This document shows, piece after piece, positions 3,182 through 29,197 of a DNA stretch of 64,000 bases. Every line of letters starts with the position of its first letter. The first letter of the stretch is position 1. The stretch lies in assembly GCF_000027125.1 (NCBI RefSeq), contig NC_017626.1; one strand, 5' to 3'. The notes beneath the pieces are model-generated. The model was not told the DNA's origin. It saw only the letters and a program-made list of their open reading frames with translations, and did no database searches. Source of the stretch: Escherichia coli 042 (GTDB lineage Bacteria > Pseudomonadota > Gammaproteobacteria > Enterobacterales > Enterobacteriaceae). The position numbers and the translations under genes were made by a program.

Positions 3182-4879
3182 GTGCACGAAATATTCAACA
3201 TGCTGCTAGCGGTCTTCGATCGGGCAGCGTTAATGCTTATCTGCCTGTTCTTTCTCATCCGTATCCGCCTGTTTCGCGAACTGTTGCACAAGTCGGCGCA
3301 CTCCCCAAAAGAGCTGCTCGCTGTTACCGCCATTTTCTCGCTGTTCGCCCTGTTCAGCACCTGGTCCGGCGTTCCCGTAGAAGGCTCGCTGGTGAACGTA
3401 CGTATTATCGCGGTGATGTCAGGCGGGATTCTGTTTGGCCCGTGGGTAGGCATTATTACCGGCGTGATCGCAGGTATTCACCGTTATTTAATTGATATCG
3501 GCGGCGTGACGGCGATCCCCTGCTTTATCACCAGCATTCTGGCGGGTTGTATATCGGGCTGGATCAACCTGAAAATCCCTAAAGCACAGCGCTGGCGCGT
3601 CGGTATTCTCGGCGGCATGTTATGTGAAACGTTGACCATGATTCTGGTGATTGTCTGGGCACCAACTACCGCATTGGGGATCGATATCGTCTCTAAAATC
3701 GGGATTCCAATGATCCTCGGTAGCGTCTGTATCGGCTTTATTGTGCTGCTGGTGCAAAGCGTTGAGGGCGAAAAAGAGGCCAGCGCCGCGCGGCAGGCCA
3801 AGCTGGCGCTGGATATCGCCAACAAAACGCTACCGCTGTTTCGCCATGTCAATAGCGAGTCATTACGCAAAGTTTGTGAAATTATTCGCGATGATATTCA
3901 CGCCGATGCGGTGGCGATTACTAATACCGATCATGTGCTGGCCTATGTCGGCGTGGGCGAACACAACTATCAGAATGGCGATGACTTCATTAGCCCGACT
4001 ACCCGACAGGCGATGAATTACGGAAAAATCATCATTAAAAACAACGATGAAGCCCACCGCACACCAGAGATTCATTCCATGCTGGTGATCCCATTGTGGG
4101 AGAAAGGCGTTGTGACCGGAACACTGAAAATTTACTACTGCCACGCGCATCAGATCACTTCCTCATTACAGGAAATGGCGGTCGGTCTGTCGCAAATCAT
4201 CTCCACGCAACTGGAGGTTTCGCGTGCCGAGCAGTTACGTGAAATGGCAAATAAGGCAGAGCTTCGCGCTCTGCAAAGCAAAATTAATCCCCATTTTCTG
4301 TTTAACGCTCTGAACGCTATTTCATCGTCAATCCGTCTGAATCCAGATACCGCTCGCCAGCTGATCTTTAATCTGTCGCGTTATCTGCGCTATAACATTG
4401 AATTAAAAGACGATGAGCAAATCGATATCAAAAAAGAGCTGTATCAAATTAAAGACTATATTGCCATTGAGCAGGCCCGCTTTGGCGACAAGCTGACGGT
4501 TATCTATGATATTGATGAAGAGGTGAATTGCTGCATTCCCAGCCTGCTGATCCAGCCGTTGGTGGAGAATGCCATTGTCCACGGTATCCAGCCTTGCAAA
4601 GGTAAAGGCGTTGTCACCATCAGCGTTGCAGAGTGCGGCAATCGGGTACGCATTGCGGTGCGAGATACCGGGCACGGCATCGATCCAAAGGTGATTGAGC
4701 GGGTCGAAGCGAATGAAATGCCGGGCAATAAAATTGGTCTGCTGAATGTCCATCATCGCGTGAAGTTATTGTATGGCGAGGGGCTGCATATCCGCCGCCT
4801 GGAACCAGGAACGGAAATTGCGTTTTACATTCCTAACCAACGCACCCCAGTCGCCTCACAGACTACGTTATTGCTTTGA
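3182..4879 (+). CDS. ypdA: LytS-type sensor histidine kinase (5TM-Lyt, GAF, HisKA/HATPase)
   Basis: 565-aa ORF with GTG start; multi-TM N-terminus and C-terminal kinase motifs; recognised as YpdA. Confidence 0.9.
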
Positions 4880-24092: not shown

Positions 24093-24168
24093 GGGTGATT
24101 AGCTCAGCTGGGAGAGCACCTCCCTTACAAGGAGGGGGTCGGCGGTTCGATCCCGTCATCACCCACCA
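24093..24168 (+). tRNA. valU: tRNA-Val (UAC)
   Basis: GGGTGATTAGCTCAGCTGGGAGAGCACCTCCCTTACAAGGAGGGGGTCGGCGGTTCGATCCCGTCATCACCCACCA; anticodon loop CUUACAA. Confidence 0.95.
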
Positions 24169-24212
24169 ACTACTTTATGTAGTCTCCGCCGTGTAGCAAG
24201 AAATTGAGAAGT

Positions 24213-24288
24213 GGGTGATTAGCTCAGCTGGGAGAGCACCTCCCTTACAAGGAGGGGGTCGGCGGTTCGATCCCGTCATCACCCACCA
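24213..24288 (+). tRNA. valX: tRNA-Val (UAC)
   Basis: identical second copy. Confidence 0.95.
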
Positions 24289-24334
24289 CTTTCTCGCCAG
24301 CTAAATTTCTTGTAACAATGTGAAGTACCGAAGT

Positions 24335-24410
24335 GGGTGATTAGCTCAGCTGGGAGAGCACCTCCCTTACAAGGAGGGGGTCGGCGGTTCGATCCCGTCA
24401 TCACCCACCA
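24335..24410 (+). tRNA. valY: tRNA-Val (UAC)
   Basis: identical third copy. Confidence 0.95.
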
Positions 24411-24414
24411 CTTC

Positions 24415-24490
24415 GGGTCGTTAGCTCAGTTGGTAGAGCAGTTGACTTTTAATCAATTGGTCGCAGGTTCGAATCCTGCACGACCCACCA
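24415..24490 (+). tRNA. lysV: tRNA-Lys (UUU)
   Basis: GGGTCGTTAGCTCAGTTGGTAGAGCAGTTGACTTTTAATCAATTGGTCGCAGGTTCGAATCCTGCACGACCCACCA; 4 nt after valY. Confidence 0.95.
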
Positions 24491-24494
24491 ATGT

Positions 24495-24521
24495 AAAAAA
24501 GCGCCCTAAAGGCGCTTTTTT
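24495..24521 (+). terminator. rho-independent terminator of the tRNA operon
   Basis: aaaaaagcgccc-taaa-gggcgctttttt immediately after lysV. Confidence 0.85.
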
Positions 24522-24609
24522 GCTATATGCGGTTTGTAAGATTGATTTTTCTTCTCAAGTTCCTTGTTCTTCTGCCGATATTACCTCGTACAGTGACGAG
24601 GACTGAACA

Positions 24610-24951
24610 ATGGCCACTATCTCTCCAACTTCAATTCCTTCCATACAAACACAGAGTAGTAACAGGGCATCAGAAGGTAGCGATGTTGCTTCACAAATTG
24701 CGCGGATAAGTCAGCAAATCATCAAACTCACTCAACAAATTAAAGAGATTGCAGACACTAGCGGCAGTGCTGAAGACAAGCAAAAACAGGCCGAATTGAT
24801 TCAGCAGCAAATCACCCTACTGGAAACACAACTGGCGCAGTTGCAAAGACAGCAGGCAGAAAAAGCGCAGGAGAAAGAGCAGCGTTTGTCTCTGAATGCA
24901 TCCCTTCCAAATCCTGTTGAAAAAACGACTCAGATCGATATCTATATCTGA
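24610..24951 (+). CDS. orphan Q/E-rich coiled-coil protein, possibly FlxA-like (113 aa)
   Basis: ORF with GAGGA SD 7 nt upstream; Ser/Thr-rich N-terminus, heptad-like Q/L/I repeats, C-terminal QIDIYI; FlxA-like call is from memory only. Confidence 0.5.
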
Positions 24952-25868
24952 TACAGCGGATCCCCTTCCCGCCCAGCCATTAGAGCACGGCCCTGGCCTC
25001 GTACCACGTCCCATAACGCTTGTGCGGCGGTGGAAAGTGAACGGTTCTTCCTGCGCACCAGCATCAACTGGCGTTCCACCACCGGCGTAATGCGCTTTAC
25101 CACCAGCGGGCTACCTTCAGGTAACGGCAGCGCCAGTGCGGGAAGAATACTAATGCCGATGCCTGCGGCTACCATCGGGAACAGCGTCGCCGGATGTCCA
25201 ATCTCCTGCACAATATTCGCCTGAATACCATTGCGCGCCAGCGCTGCGTCAATCAGCGGTCGGCTGCCTGACGCGTAATCCTGCAACACCAATTTCGCTC
25301 CCTGTAATGCCTGCCAGGGTACATAATCTTCCGCGGCCAAAGCGCTATCGCGATGGCAAAGCAAGAAGAAAGGCTCGGAAAGAATCGCTTCACATTGCAG
25401 ATCGCCCACTGGGCCTGGATCGATGACGATGCCAAAATCGACATCTCCCTGGCGAATACTTTCCATCACCCACTGCTGCGGACGATCGTGCAGGATAAAC
25501 TGAATATCTGGATAGCGGCGATGGCTTTCAGCAATGCATTGCGGAATAAGATGCGCGGAAATGGTCTGGCTGGCAGCGACCCGAACTTTTCCGCTCAGTT
25601 GTTGCCCCATACGCCCGGTATCGCGCAACGTGCTGTTAAGTTCATCCAGCAGTCGCTCAAGACGCAAAGCCAACTGCTGCCCTGCATCTGTAAGCACCAC
25701 TTCACGCGTGGTTCTGTCCAGCAGGCGAACACCAGTATGATTTTCCAGCTCCTTCACACTGTGACTTACTGCCGACTGACTCAGGCCGATACGCTCTCCT
25801 GCACGACTAAAACTTTTCTCCTGCGCTACTGTGACGAAAACCTTTAATTGTTTTAAAGAATAATTCAT
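24942..25868 (-). CDS. yfeR: LysR-family transcriptional regulator
   Basis: 308-aa ORF; N-terminal LysR HTH ([13 protein letters not shown]); recognised as YfeR. Confidence 0.88.
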
Positions 25869-25957
25869 CTGTTTTATTCATGAATGGATGCAATAAATCA
25901 ATTTTATTTCTCAAACTGGAAGAAGCACAATAGAACCATCGATCATCTGGAGTCTTT

Positions 25958-26956
25958 ATGAAACTTTTTCGTATCCTCGATCCTTTCACCTTAACCCTGA
26001 TCACGGTGGTGTTGCTGGCCTCTTTCTTTCCGGCCAGAGGCGATTTCGTCCCCTTCTTTGAAAATCTGACCACTGCAGCTATTGCCCTGCTGTTCTTTAT
26101 GCACGGCGCGAAGTTGTCGCGTGAGGCGATTATTGCTGGCGGTGGGCACTGGCGACTGCATTTGTGGGTAATGTGCAGCACCTTCGTATTGTTTCCGATT
26201 CTGGGCGTGCTGTTTGCCTGGTGGAAACCGGTAAATGTCGACCCGATGCTCTACTCCGGTTTTCTCTACTTGTGCATTCTCCCCGCTACCGTGCAGTCTG
26301 CAATCGCCTTTACTTCAATGGCGGGCGGTAACGTCGCGGCAGCGGTTTGTTCTGCGTCAGCATCCAGCCTGTTGGGGATTTTCCTTTCACCATTGCTGGT
26401 TGGTCTGGTGATGAATGTTCACGGTGCAGGGGGCAGCCTTGAGCAGGTCGGTAAAATTATGCTGCAACTGCTGCTGCCGTTTGTGTTGGGGCATCTTTCC
26501 CGGCCGTGGATTGGTGACTGGGTGTCGCGCAATAAAAAATGGATTGCGAAAACTGACCAGACGTCCATTCTGTTGGTGGTTTATACAGCGTTCAGCGAAG
26601 CCGTCGTTAATGGTATCTGGCATAAAGTTGGCTGGGGATCATTGCTGTTTATCGTGGTGGTCAGCTGCGTTCTTCTGGCTATCGTGATCGTAGTTAACGT
26701 CTTTATGGCACGCCGACTGGGCTTCAATAAGGCAGATGAAATTACTATCGTCTTTTGTGGTTCGAAAAAGAGTCTGGCAAATGGCATCCCGATGGCAAAC
26801 ATTCTTTTCCCCACATCGGTGATCGGTATGATGGTGCTGCCTCTGATGATTTTCCATCAGATCCAATTGATGGTCTGTGCGGTGCTGGCGCGTCGATACA
26901 AACACCAGACCGAACAGTTACAGGCGCAGCAGGAAAGCCGCGCCAATAAAGCTTAA
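25958..26956 (+). CDS. yfeH: putative Na+-dependent solute symporter (BASS-like)
   Basis: 332-aa polytopic ORF recognised as YfeH; divergent from yfeR. Confidence 0.85.
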   Translation: MKLFRILDPFTLTLITVVLLASFFPARGDFVPFFENLTTAAIALLFFMHGAKLSREAIIAGGGHWRLHLWVMCSTFVLFPILGVLFAWWKPVNVDPMLYSGFLYLCILPATVQSAIAFTSMAGGNVAAAVCSASASSLLGIFLSPLLVGLVMNVHGAGGSLEQVGKIMLQLLLPFVLGHLSRPWIGDWVSRNKKWIAKTDQTSILLVVYTAFSEAVVNGIWHKVGWGSLLFIVVVSCVLLAIVIVVNVFMARRLGFNKADEITIVFCGSKKSLANGIPMANILFPTSVIGMMVLPLMIFHQIQLMVCAVLARRYKHQTEQLQAQQESRANKA

Positions 26957-27171
26957 AGAGGACGCTTCAGGGGCTGGACCAGTTGCGTCAGCCCCTCAGT
27001 TTTAATCAGCAGCGTGATTTGCATTAGCTCACCGAGCTTCCCTGCCGGGAACTCATCTTTGCGGGCAAACCACAGAAGATACTCCTCCGGCAGGTCGATT
27101 AAGCGACGCCCTTTGTATTTGCCAAACGGCATTATCGTATTGGCTATTTCAATCAGCTGCTCTTTTTCCAT
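26953..27171 (-). CDS. ypeB: small conserved protein (DUF3820-like)
   Basis: ORF 26953..27264 trimmed to ATG 27171 (MEKEQLIEIANTIMPFGKYKGRR...), 72 aa, starting right after ligA stop. Confidence 0.7.
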   Translation of the reverse strand: MEKEQLIEIANTIMPFGKYKGRRLIDLPEEYLLWFARKDEFPAGKLGELMQITLLIKTEGLTQLVQPLKRPL

Positions 27172-27172
27172 C

Positions 27173-29197
<2,025 letters not shown>

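Follow-up and report, generated by a model that had tools for sequence, protein, structure and literature searches.

A conserved control region across overlapping divergent promoters as a predicted YfeR operator in the yfeR-yfeH intergenic spacer of Escherichia coli 042

The intergenic spacer between the divergent genes yfeR and yfeH of Escherichia coli 042 is best explained as holding a compact control region at approximately positions 25877-25931, which overlaps two sigma-70 promoters; the functional element is not the conspicuous palindrome ATTCATGAAT that had drawn attention to this spacer. All positions refer to the window, i.e. the whole stretch of 64,000 nucleotides of contig NC_017626.1 that was analyzed. 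Within this region, two tandem dyads, referred to here as site A and site B, are predicted to form the operator of the LysR-type regulator YfeR, a reading towards which we lean with somewhat better than even confidence.

The regulator gene yfeR (24942-25868, minus strand) encodes a protein of 308 aa with the Pfam domains HTH_1 and LysR_substrate and is annotated under this name in E. coli genomes; against NCBIfam, its product did not reach the cut-off of any equivalog family. The gene yfeH (25958-26956, plus strand) is annotated as encoding a transporter of the SBF_like/BASS family (332 aa; Pfam SBF_like, E = 3.9e-113). Over 24400-27300, the window is 100% identical to several complete E. coli genomes. 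The initial annotation of this locus had rightly recognized a LysR-family gene divergent from a transporter gene, and its spacer length of 90 bp has to be corrected to 89 bp (25869-25957, 33% G+C). Scanning species-representative genomes for YfeR provided 36 loci from Escherichia, Pseudocitrobacter, Citrobacter, Kluyvera, Pluralibacter, Silvania and Salmonella, and loci from Enterobacter and Lelliottia were added to this set later. The divergent arrangement of regulator and transporter is present at 36 enterobacterial loci and at three loci of the Rhodanobacteraceae type. In every enterobacterial locus reaching far enough upstream of yfeR, the spacer measures 88-90 bp and yfeH is divergent. 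The alignment used in the following comprises 35 spacers from at least eight genera, and base pairs of the dyads were counted in 32 distinct enterobacterial spacers.

The sequence ATTCATGAAT at 25876-25885 (axis 25880.5) is a perfect palindrome, for which both the position and the symmetry first assigned to it were borne out. The outer motif TTATT...AATAA, placed at 25873-25895 by the initial annotation, is actually located one base further on, at 25874-25896, and the maximal outer dyad reads TTTATT-N13-AATAAA (25873-25897); its right arm is at the same time the left arm of the conserved site B. The palindrome had also been described as nested in the outer motif, but the outer axis lies at 25885 and the two are not concentric. 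Neither motif is of the T-N11-A type, as the outer arms are N13 apart (T-N13-A between the inner bases) and ATTCATGAAT has no spacer at all. Neither the palindrome nor the outer dyad exceeds chance. Across the window, 59 perfect 10-bp palindromes were observed compared with 78.5 +/- 9.3 in dinucleotide-preserving shuffles, and 15% of shuffled 89-bp spacers contain such a palindrome. If dyads are counted whose arms reach 6 bp or more and whose spacer does not exceed 21 bp, 56% of shuffled 89-bp spacers contain one.

In addition, the palindrome includes a SNP with three alleles (A, C or T) at position 25876, where only A completes both the 10-bp palindrome and the TTATT arm. The window carries A; C was found in K-12, O145:H28, BL21 and RM10740, and T in FDAARGOS_1293, AH21H025 and B2.3. 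The spacer of K-12 MG1655 shows a single difference from that of the window, the C at 25876, and consequently reads CTTCATGAAT and TTCTT. Exact identity to the window over 25862-25915 was found in 3.2% (171/5389) of E. coli records, and all genomes in our allele survey (six fetched non-identical E. coli genomes and K-12) differ from the window at 25876. Other E. coli carry C or T at this position, so that only a minority allele provides the complete palindrome together with the TTATT arm.

Among the 32 distinct enterobacterial spacers, all five palindrome pairs are complementary in 4/32 and the central C-G pair is kept in 10/32. The outer dyad is complete in 5/32, and its left arm is not conserved. 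At the position of the palindrome, Citrobacter and Salmonella read ATTCATATAT and several other genera ATTCATCAAT; ATTCATGAAT itself is also carried by Enterobacter, Kluyvera and Lelliottia, and it is absent from the three Rhodanobacteraceae-type spacers. Of the flagged motifs, only the TTCAT half and the AATAA arm belong to conserved elements, in which each of them pairs with another partner: the symmetric conserved partner of TTCAT is ATG.A at 25888-25892, not the neighbouring TGAAT.

It has been proposed that the palindrome, nested in TTATT-N13-AATAA, is itself the operator of YfeR. The palindrome does exist, and its axis lies within the 26-nt yfeR leader (approximately +14 of yfeR) and at approximately -57 of the yfeH start, near the customary position of LysR-type recognition sites; moreover, the TTCAT half and the A-T at 25884-25885 are conserved, and three further genera share the complete sequence. 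However, its occurrence is at chance level, it is broken in approximately 97% of E. coli genomes by the polymorphism at 25876, it is missing from Salmonella, Citrobacter and Rhodanobacteraceae, its axis is not conserved, and the outer dyad is spaced by N13, not N11. Altogether, we regard this proposal as very improbable. From the original suggestion that YfeR controls yfeH through this site, an operator in the spacer in general is retained as a prediction, and the nominated palindrome and dyad, which are neither conserved nor above chance level, are dropped.

A different picture emerged for the adjacent sequence. In the alignment of 35 spacers, a block of 29 bp, GATGCAATAAATCAATTTTATTTCTCAAA (25887-25915), is near-invariant; it occurs once in the window. 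The exceptions are three single bases, namely G25890T in one E. coli genome, A25913C in strain RM10740 of this species and, at the centre of the dyad, A25900G in Lelliottia. Of the four-fold degenerate sites of yfeH in these genomes, just 1/102 is invariant, and we therefore conclude that the block is under strong purifying selection. Its conservation is beyond neutral expectation, whereas that of the palindrome and of the outer dyad is not. Outside the block, the conserved elements are TTCAT (25877-25881), AT (25884-25885) and GCAMAAT (25925-25931).

Near the centre of the block lies the dyad of site B, AATAAA-N5-TTTATT (25892-25908, axis 25900), with the T-N11-A core T25894...A25906; the initial annotation had passed over this dyad. 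Its six arm pairs are all complementary in 32/32 distinct enterobacterial spacers. For the shorter form ATAAA-N5-TTTAT, 0.06 occurrences would be expected per window, and a single one was observed, at 25893-25907. Unlike the flagged motif, site B has the form of an LTTR box, that is, an interrupted dyad with a T-N11-A core. Its register is ambiguous, because AT-rich DNA yields several overlapping symmetry axes, and site B can alternatively be read at 25893-25911 with its axis at 25902. Site A is an interrupted dyad of the form TnCAT-N6-ATGnA (TTCATGAATGGATGCA; 25877-25892, axis 25884.5), and the centres of the two sites are 15.5-17.5 bp apart. Within Enterobacteriaceae no covariation is seen, since the block does not vary there.

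The position of these dyads was related to published transcription starts. In the operon tables obtained by SMRT-Cappable-seq of MG1655, yfeR (b2409) has a start at 2526882 on the reverse strand and yfeH (b2410) one at 2526925 on the forward strand (PMC6131387, Supplementary Data 2). Adding 2,500,988 to a window coordinate gives that of K-12, and the starts therefore correspond to 25894 (yfeR, minus strand) and 25937 (yfeH, plus strand). The forward coordinates of this table seem to be 0-based, with thrL given as 147 for a start that we take to be 148, so the yfeH start is 25937 or 25938. Starts at 25894 and 25938 had been predicted from the conserved hexamers before the start data were located. 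The resulting 5' UTRs measure 26 nt for yfeR and approximately 20 nt for yfeH; the latter contains the Shine-Dalgarno sequence GGAG (25949-25952, plus strand), which is invariant in the alignment.

The -10 element of yfeR, TAAAAT (25901-25906, minus strand), is located at -12 to -7 inside site B and is invariant in Enterobacteriaceae. Sequence and start together suggest a -35-like element TTGTGC (25925-25930, minus strand) at an 18-bp spacer, which overlaps the -10 of yfeH and in which GCAMAA is conserved. On the plus strand, the yfeH -10 CACAAT (25926-25931; CAAAAT in other genera) is located at -12 to -7 if transcription starts at 25938. The -35 region of yfeH, deduced in the same way, would be TTTATT (25903-25908, plus strand), a poor 3/6 match at a 17-bp spacer, which also lies inside site B. 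In this layout, the two promoters run back to back from starts separated by 43-44 bp, and the -10 of either one falls in the -35 region of the other. The published starts place the block 25887-25915 across the -10/+1 of yfeR and the -35 of yfeH. The centre of site B is found at approximately -6 of yfeR and at approximately -36 to -38 of yfeH, that of site A at approximately -53 of yfeH. That site B overlaps the promoter of yfeR itself follows from position alone, given a start at 25894 and a -10 inside the site.

A scan of 25700-26100 for consensus promoters found nothing, and no entry for a yfeR or yfeH start was found in the ROSE and Romero 2014 TSS files. The genomic SELEX catalogue (Shimada) predicts the hexamers TTCTCA-17-TAGAAC as the yfeH promoter (PMC3946193). 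We rejected this promoter: TAGAAC is not conserved and ends at 25936, at the mapped start. Besides that, a structured RNA leader or riboswitch was considered for this region. An Rfam scan gave no match at E <= 1, and the yfeR leader folds with -4.9 kcal/mol (z = -0.18 versus shuffled controls), which is no better than the shuffles. With an unremarkable fold, no Rfam match and UTRs of merely 26 nt and approximately 20 nt, this reading was rejected. The yfeR 5' UTR also contains an upstream AUG (25879-25881, minus strand), located 13 nt ahead of the main AUG and out of frame with it, which starts a 24-codon uORF in E. coli 042; TCAT is invariant in the alignment of Enterobacteriaceae.

Further evidence comes from outside the family. 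The closest full-length homologues beyond Enterobacteriaceae which keep the transporter neighbour were those of Rhodanobacter umsongensis (L056), Dyella jiangningensis (L057) and a metagenome contig (L050). Their regulators are 44-47% identical to YfeR, and their transporters share 56-58% identity with YfeH in Rhodanobacter and Dyella, and 51% over just 43 residues in the metagenome contig. YfeR homologues at 39-49% identity without a yfeH neighbour (L048, L049, L052-L055) were left out. An apparent orthologue with 54% identity (L047) was discarded, as its DNA is almost free of G and looks like an assembly of bisulfite-type converted reads.

The three Rhodanobacteraceae-type spacers are AT-rich over about the first 45 bp and align with that of E. 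coli free of gaps over the first 64 columns from the regulator start codon. Identity over these columns amounts to 28-34/64, compared with approximately 18 expected, and in all three cases zero shift was the best of 21 shifts. The bases invariant in both families include T25894-A-A, C25899, A25901-T-T-T, T25908 and the AAT closing the yfeH -10, which persists even in Rhodanobacteraceae; within the T-N11-A core, the T at 25894 thus never varies between the two families, and the conservation of A25906 reaches at least 90%. We then scanned 95 axes over the first 64 bp for symmetry, scoring a pair when it was complementary in at least 90% of the enterobacterial and at least 2/3 of the distant spacers. 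Only two of the 95 axes, 25884.5 (site A) and 25902 (site B), have five symmetric pairs that are kept in both families, and the palindrome axis 25880.5 is not among the conserved ones. At site A, two pairs (25877/25892 and 25879/25890) have exchanged both of their bases between the families, T-A having become C-G and C-G having become T-A, and site B, read around axis 25902 (25893-25911), shows one compensatory pair. Scans of the Rhodanobacteraceae spacers for -10 elements gave no interpretable outcome.

One possible explanation for the conservation could be promoter architecture alone, i.e. two overlapping divergent promoters that share 44 bp, in which every base acts as -10, -35, spacer or discriminator of either promoter, possibly with an AT-rich UP-like tract, and no dedicated regulator. 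The interlocked geometry of the two promoters agrees with this explanation, as do the bases ATTT (25901-25904) and AAT (25929-25931), which are invariant in both families and fall within the -10 hexamers. Likewise, the spacer was recovered as a 'constitutive promoter' when RNA polymerase holoenzyme was the only protein used in genomic SELEX (PMC3946193), and a fragment of this region was not shifted by YfeR in an EMSA (PMC11227560). However, invariance is also observed at 25887-25900, comprising the yfeR start and its initial transcribed bases, and at 25909-25915, in the spacer of both promoters. Changes at spacer and initial-transcribed positions are tolerated by sigma-70 promoters. The same promoter spacers also contain a stretch that does vary, 25916-25923, so a place in a spacer does not by itself enforce conservation. 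Moreover, dyad symmetry with compensatory changes between families would be unexpected of promoter elements. We consider promoter architecture alone an unlikely explanation. The extension of invariance over bases that RNA polymerase alone does not constrain speaks for an operator; even so, the two -10 hexamers by themselves could account for part of what is conserved, ATTT and AAT among it.

The main case for YfeR as the protein binding to sites A and B is the co-inheritance of the regulator-transporter pair with the conserved spacer layout, from which we infer that the regulator probably reads this element. Besides RNA polymerase, the regulator is the sole candidate DNA-binding protein known to be encoded at the locus in both families. 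The open literature that was searched for YfeR contained one direct binding test, which was negative: purified E. coli YfeR at 1-10 nM gave no shift of a 150-bp yfeR promoter fragment in an EMSA, while the fnr promoter was shifted (PMC11227560). Neither ChIP or SELEX data for YfeR nor a mapped YfeR site was found in the literature searched. The pyfeR construct of the EMSA study carries the promoter (PMC11227560), and its cloning primer lies 150 bp upstream of the yfeR start codon; if the EMSA fragment is the same 150 bp, it should span the whole spacer. A study on yfeR of Salmonella (Banos et al. 2011, FEMS Microbiol Lett 315:63) is cited in the same paper (PMC11227560).

The initial annotation had named failure of YfeR to bind this fragment as a finding that would speak against its proposal, and this is what the EMSA reported; we count it as weak evidence against the operator and not as decisive. 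The YfeR protein was expressed from a construct cloned in pET28a via NdeI/HindIII (PMC11227560), and its His tag was presumably N-terminal, beside the DNA-binding domain. In addition, we found no motif common to the spacer and the fnr promoter; the best matches, 16/29 for the block and 11/15 for the dyad, are uninformative, the dyad match seemingly overlapping the box of FNR itself. We gave the EMSA modest weight because the control lane was run at low protein, the tag is likely N-terminal and no motif is shared with the fnr promoter. If the negative result were correct, the block would be read by a factor other than YfeR, and YfeR would be uncoupled from its conserved neighbour gene, which appears quite improbable to us.

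A related possibility is that the block represents the target of another protein, such as YbfA, which is reported to activate yfeR, a nucleoid protein such as H-NS, or another LysR-family protein such as Nac. YbfA did shift the 150-bp yfeR promoter fragment, and yfeR and yfeH mRNA were reduced 2.09-fold and 2.02-fold, respectively, in a ybfA mutant (PMC11227560). This joint drop is, weakly, also compatible with the operator model. YbfA (68 aa) is not known to have a DNA-binding fold. Its binding has been published in one EMSA (PMC11227560). In the case of H-NS, the block is AT-rich and GCAATAAATC matches 7/10 positions of the high-affinity motif (TCGATAAATT), but base-by-base invariance would be abnormal for H-NS sites. 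Similarly, ATAAATCAATTTTAT in Enterobacteriaceae fits the Nac-type consensus ATA-N9-TAT, but this sequence is absent at the aligned position of the Rhodanobacter, Dyella and metagenome (L050) loci. More generally, Rhodanobacteraceae that possess the regulator-transporter pair also possess the element, at exactly the same position, which is hard to reconcile with enterobacterial factors. We therefore judge binding by another protein to be an improbable basis of the conservation. An IHF site was also considered and rejected: by eye, WATCAANNNNTTR fits WATCAA at 25896-25901 and fails at TTR.

Returning to YfeR, sites A and B may represent tandem sites for a YfeR tetramer placed across two mutually exclusive promoters. 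Occupancy of site B would cover the -10 and the start of yfeR and might thereby cause autorepression, which is usual among LysR-type regulators. At the same time, YfeR at site B, approximately -37 of yfeH, might recruit RNA polymerase in a class-II-type manner and offset the weak -35 of this promoter, and yfeH would then be activated rather than repressed. A ligand might tip the balance between the two promoters.

Classical divergent promoters of LysR-type regulators (CbnR, BenM, CatR, OccR) comprise a recognition site with the T-N11-A motif and an activation site and are subject to autorepression; in the target promoter, the former is located near -65 and the latter near -35. At yfeH, site B agrees with the -35 position, and site A lies nearer to the start than is usual for the upstream site. 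The yfeR-yfeH spacer resembles these systems in having a regulator divergent from its presumed target, a short spacer, a dyad with a T-N11-A core (25894-25906), a site over the regulator's own -10 and start, an adjacent second site and a weak target -35. It differs from them in that the best dyad is located at approximately -37 of the target instead of approximately -65, and in that the two sites abut, their centres being separated by 15.5-17.5 bp compared with approximately 21-30 bp. Furthermore, its operator is a predicted one, and the one EMSA with YfeR was negative. The dyad position and the close site centres count against the operator model, as do the ambiguous symmetry register and the cross-family support from three distant loci.

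The closest well-studied parallel is the ilvY-ilvC locus of E. coli, for which Wek and Hatfield as well as Rhee et al. reportedly described two tandem operators of IlvY, O1 and O2, at overlapping divergent promoters. There, too, the promoters are said to be back to back, with starts approximately 45 bp apart compared with 43-44 bp at yfeR-yfeH, and two tandem dyads reportedly lie one over the regulator start region and the other over the target -35. Unlike at yfeR-yfeH, where the sites are known from sequence, binding, cooperativity and ligand response are reported to have been demonstrated for IlvY. Within the orthologous group, Salmonella has the same divergent yfeH neighbour, and the 29-bp block of Salmonella arizonae and diarizonae is identical to that of E. 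coli, whereas ATTCATATAT takes the place of ATTCATGAAT in the Salmonella spacer. In Salmonella Typhimurium, expression of yfeR is reportedly osmoregulated, and yfeH is said to be modulated in a YfeR-dependent manner.

If the Salmonella work did report such modulation, the regulatory link between YfeR and yfeH is not new; what is added here is where the likely operator and the promoters lie, and that the palindrome is dropped as a candidate. The palindrome is a strain-specific accident, which makes it unsuitable as an operator despite its conspicuous appearance. The hexamers listed for yfeH in the genomic SELEX catalogue conflict with the mapped start. Furthermore, the 2024 paper used its yfeR fragment as a control not bound by YfeR (PMC11227560), and given the conservation of this region, re-examination of that fragment would be worthwhile. 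In other respects, regulatory sites like this one are well known and routine. For YfeR and YfeH, both poorly characterised, the map of the proposed operator and the promoters helps to choose bases for mutagenesis and a fragment for footprinting.

Directly 3' of yfeR, the genome of E. coli 042 carries an ORF for a FlxA-like protein of 113 aa (24610-24951, ORF call), which is convergent with yfeR and overlaps its 3' end by 10 bp. In K-12, this position is occupied by xapA and yfeN instead, and ORFs of 113 and 148 aa are found in the equivalent place in Enterobacter and Lelliottia. Upstream of the FlxA-like ORF lies a tRNA cluster (24093-24490) comprising three genes for tRNA-Val(UAC) and one for tRNA-Lys(UUU); several ORFs called mechanically in this interval are artefacts of the tRNA genes. 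On the other side of the locus, ypeB (DUF3820/PF12843; 26953-27171, corresponding to 3942-4160 of the K-12 locus L037) is encoded on the strand opposite to yfeH, with a 4-bp overlap at the yfeH stop codon, and is located directly upstream of ligA. The genes ligA and ypeB are listed as a single operon (b2411|b4546) in a SMRT-Cappable-seq dataset (PMC6131387).

With regard to expression, published RNA-seq data of a ybfA mutant revealed a joint decrease of yfeR (-2.09-fold) and yfeH (-2.02-fold) mRNA. In the same dataset, yfeH was also reduced in nirC (-1.42-fold) and wzb (-1.73-fold) mutants, whereas yfeR remained unchanged in both (PMC11227560, Supplementary Data 1).

Among the loci from other genomes, three appear to carry a damaged copy of one of the two genes. 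In E. coli B2.3 (L043), the annotation gives yfeR as a pseudogene containing an internal stop; in Salmonella enterica subsp. arizonae (L031), the yfeR match is restricted to residues 1-42 and 152-308, which suggests an internal deletion; and in Kluyvera genomosp. 3 (L010), yfeH is split into two separate matches. The near-invariant 29-bp block of the yfeR-yfeH spacer (25887-25915) is intact in all three. A further contig, L047 (Logan SRR18107614), resembles over its whole length a yfeR-yfeH locus with A in place of almost every G, as seen in bisulfite-type converted reads. The protein database lists its product as a homologue of YfeR ('54% identical'), but it is considered an assembly artefact and not a genuine relative.

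Reading the sequence of the 26-nt yfeR leader, we located an upstream AUG at 25879-25881 (minus strand). The main yfeR AUG follows 13 nt downstream in a different frame, and the uORF starting at the leader AUG comprises 24 codons, overlaps the yfeR start and ends at approximately 25807 (minus strand). The TCAT encoding this upstream AUG is invariant across Enterobacteriaceae and doubles as the left arm of a candidate YfeR site (site A), the interrupted dyad TnCAT-N6-ATGnA at 25877-25892.
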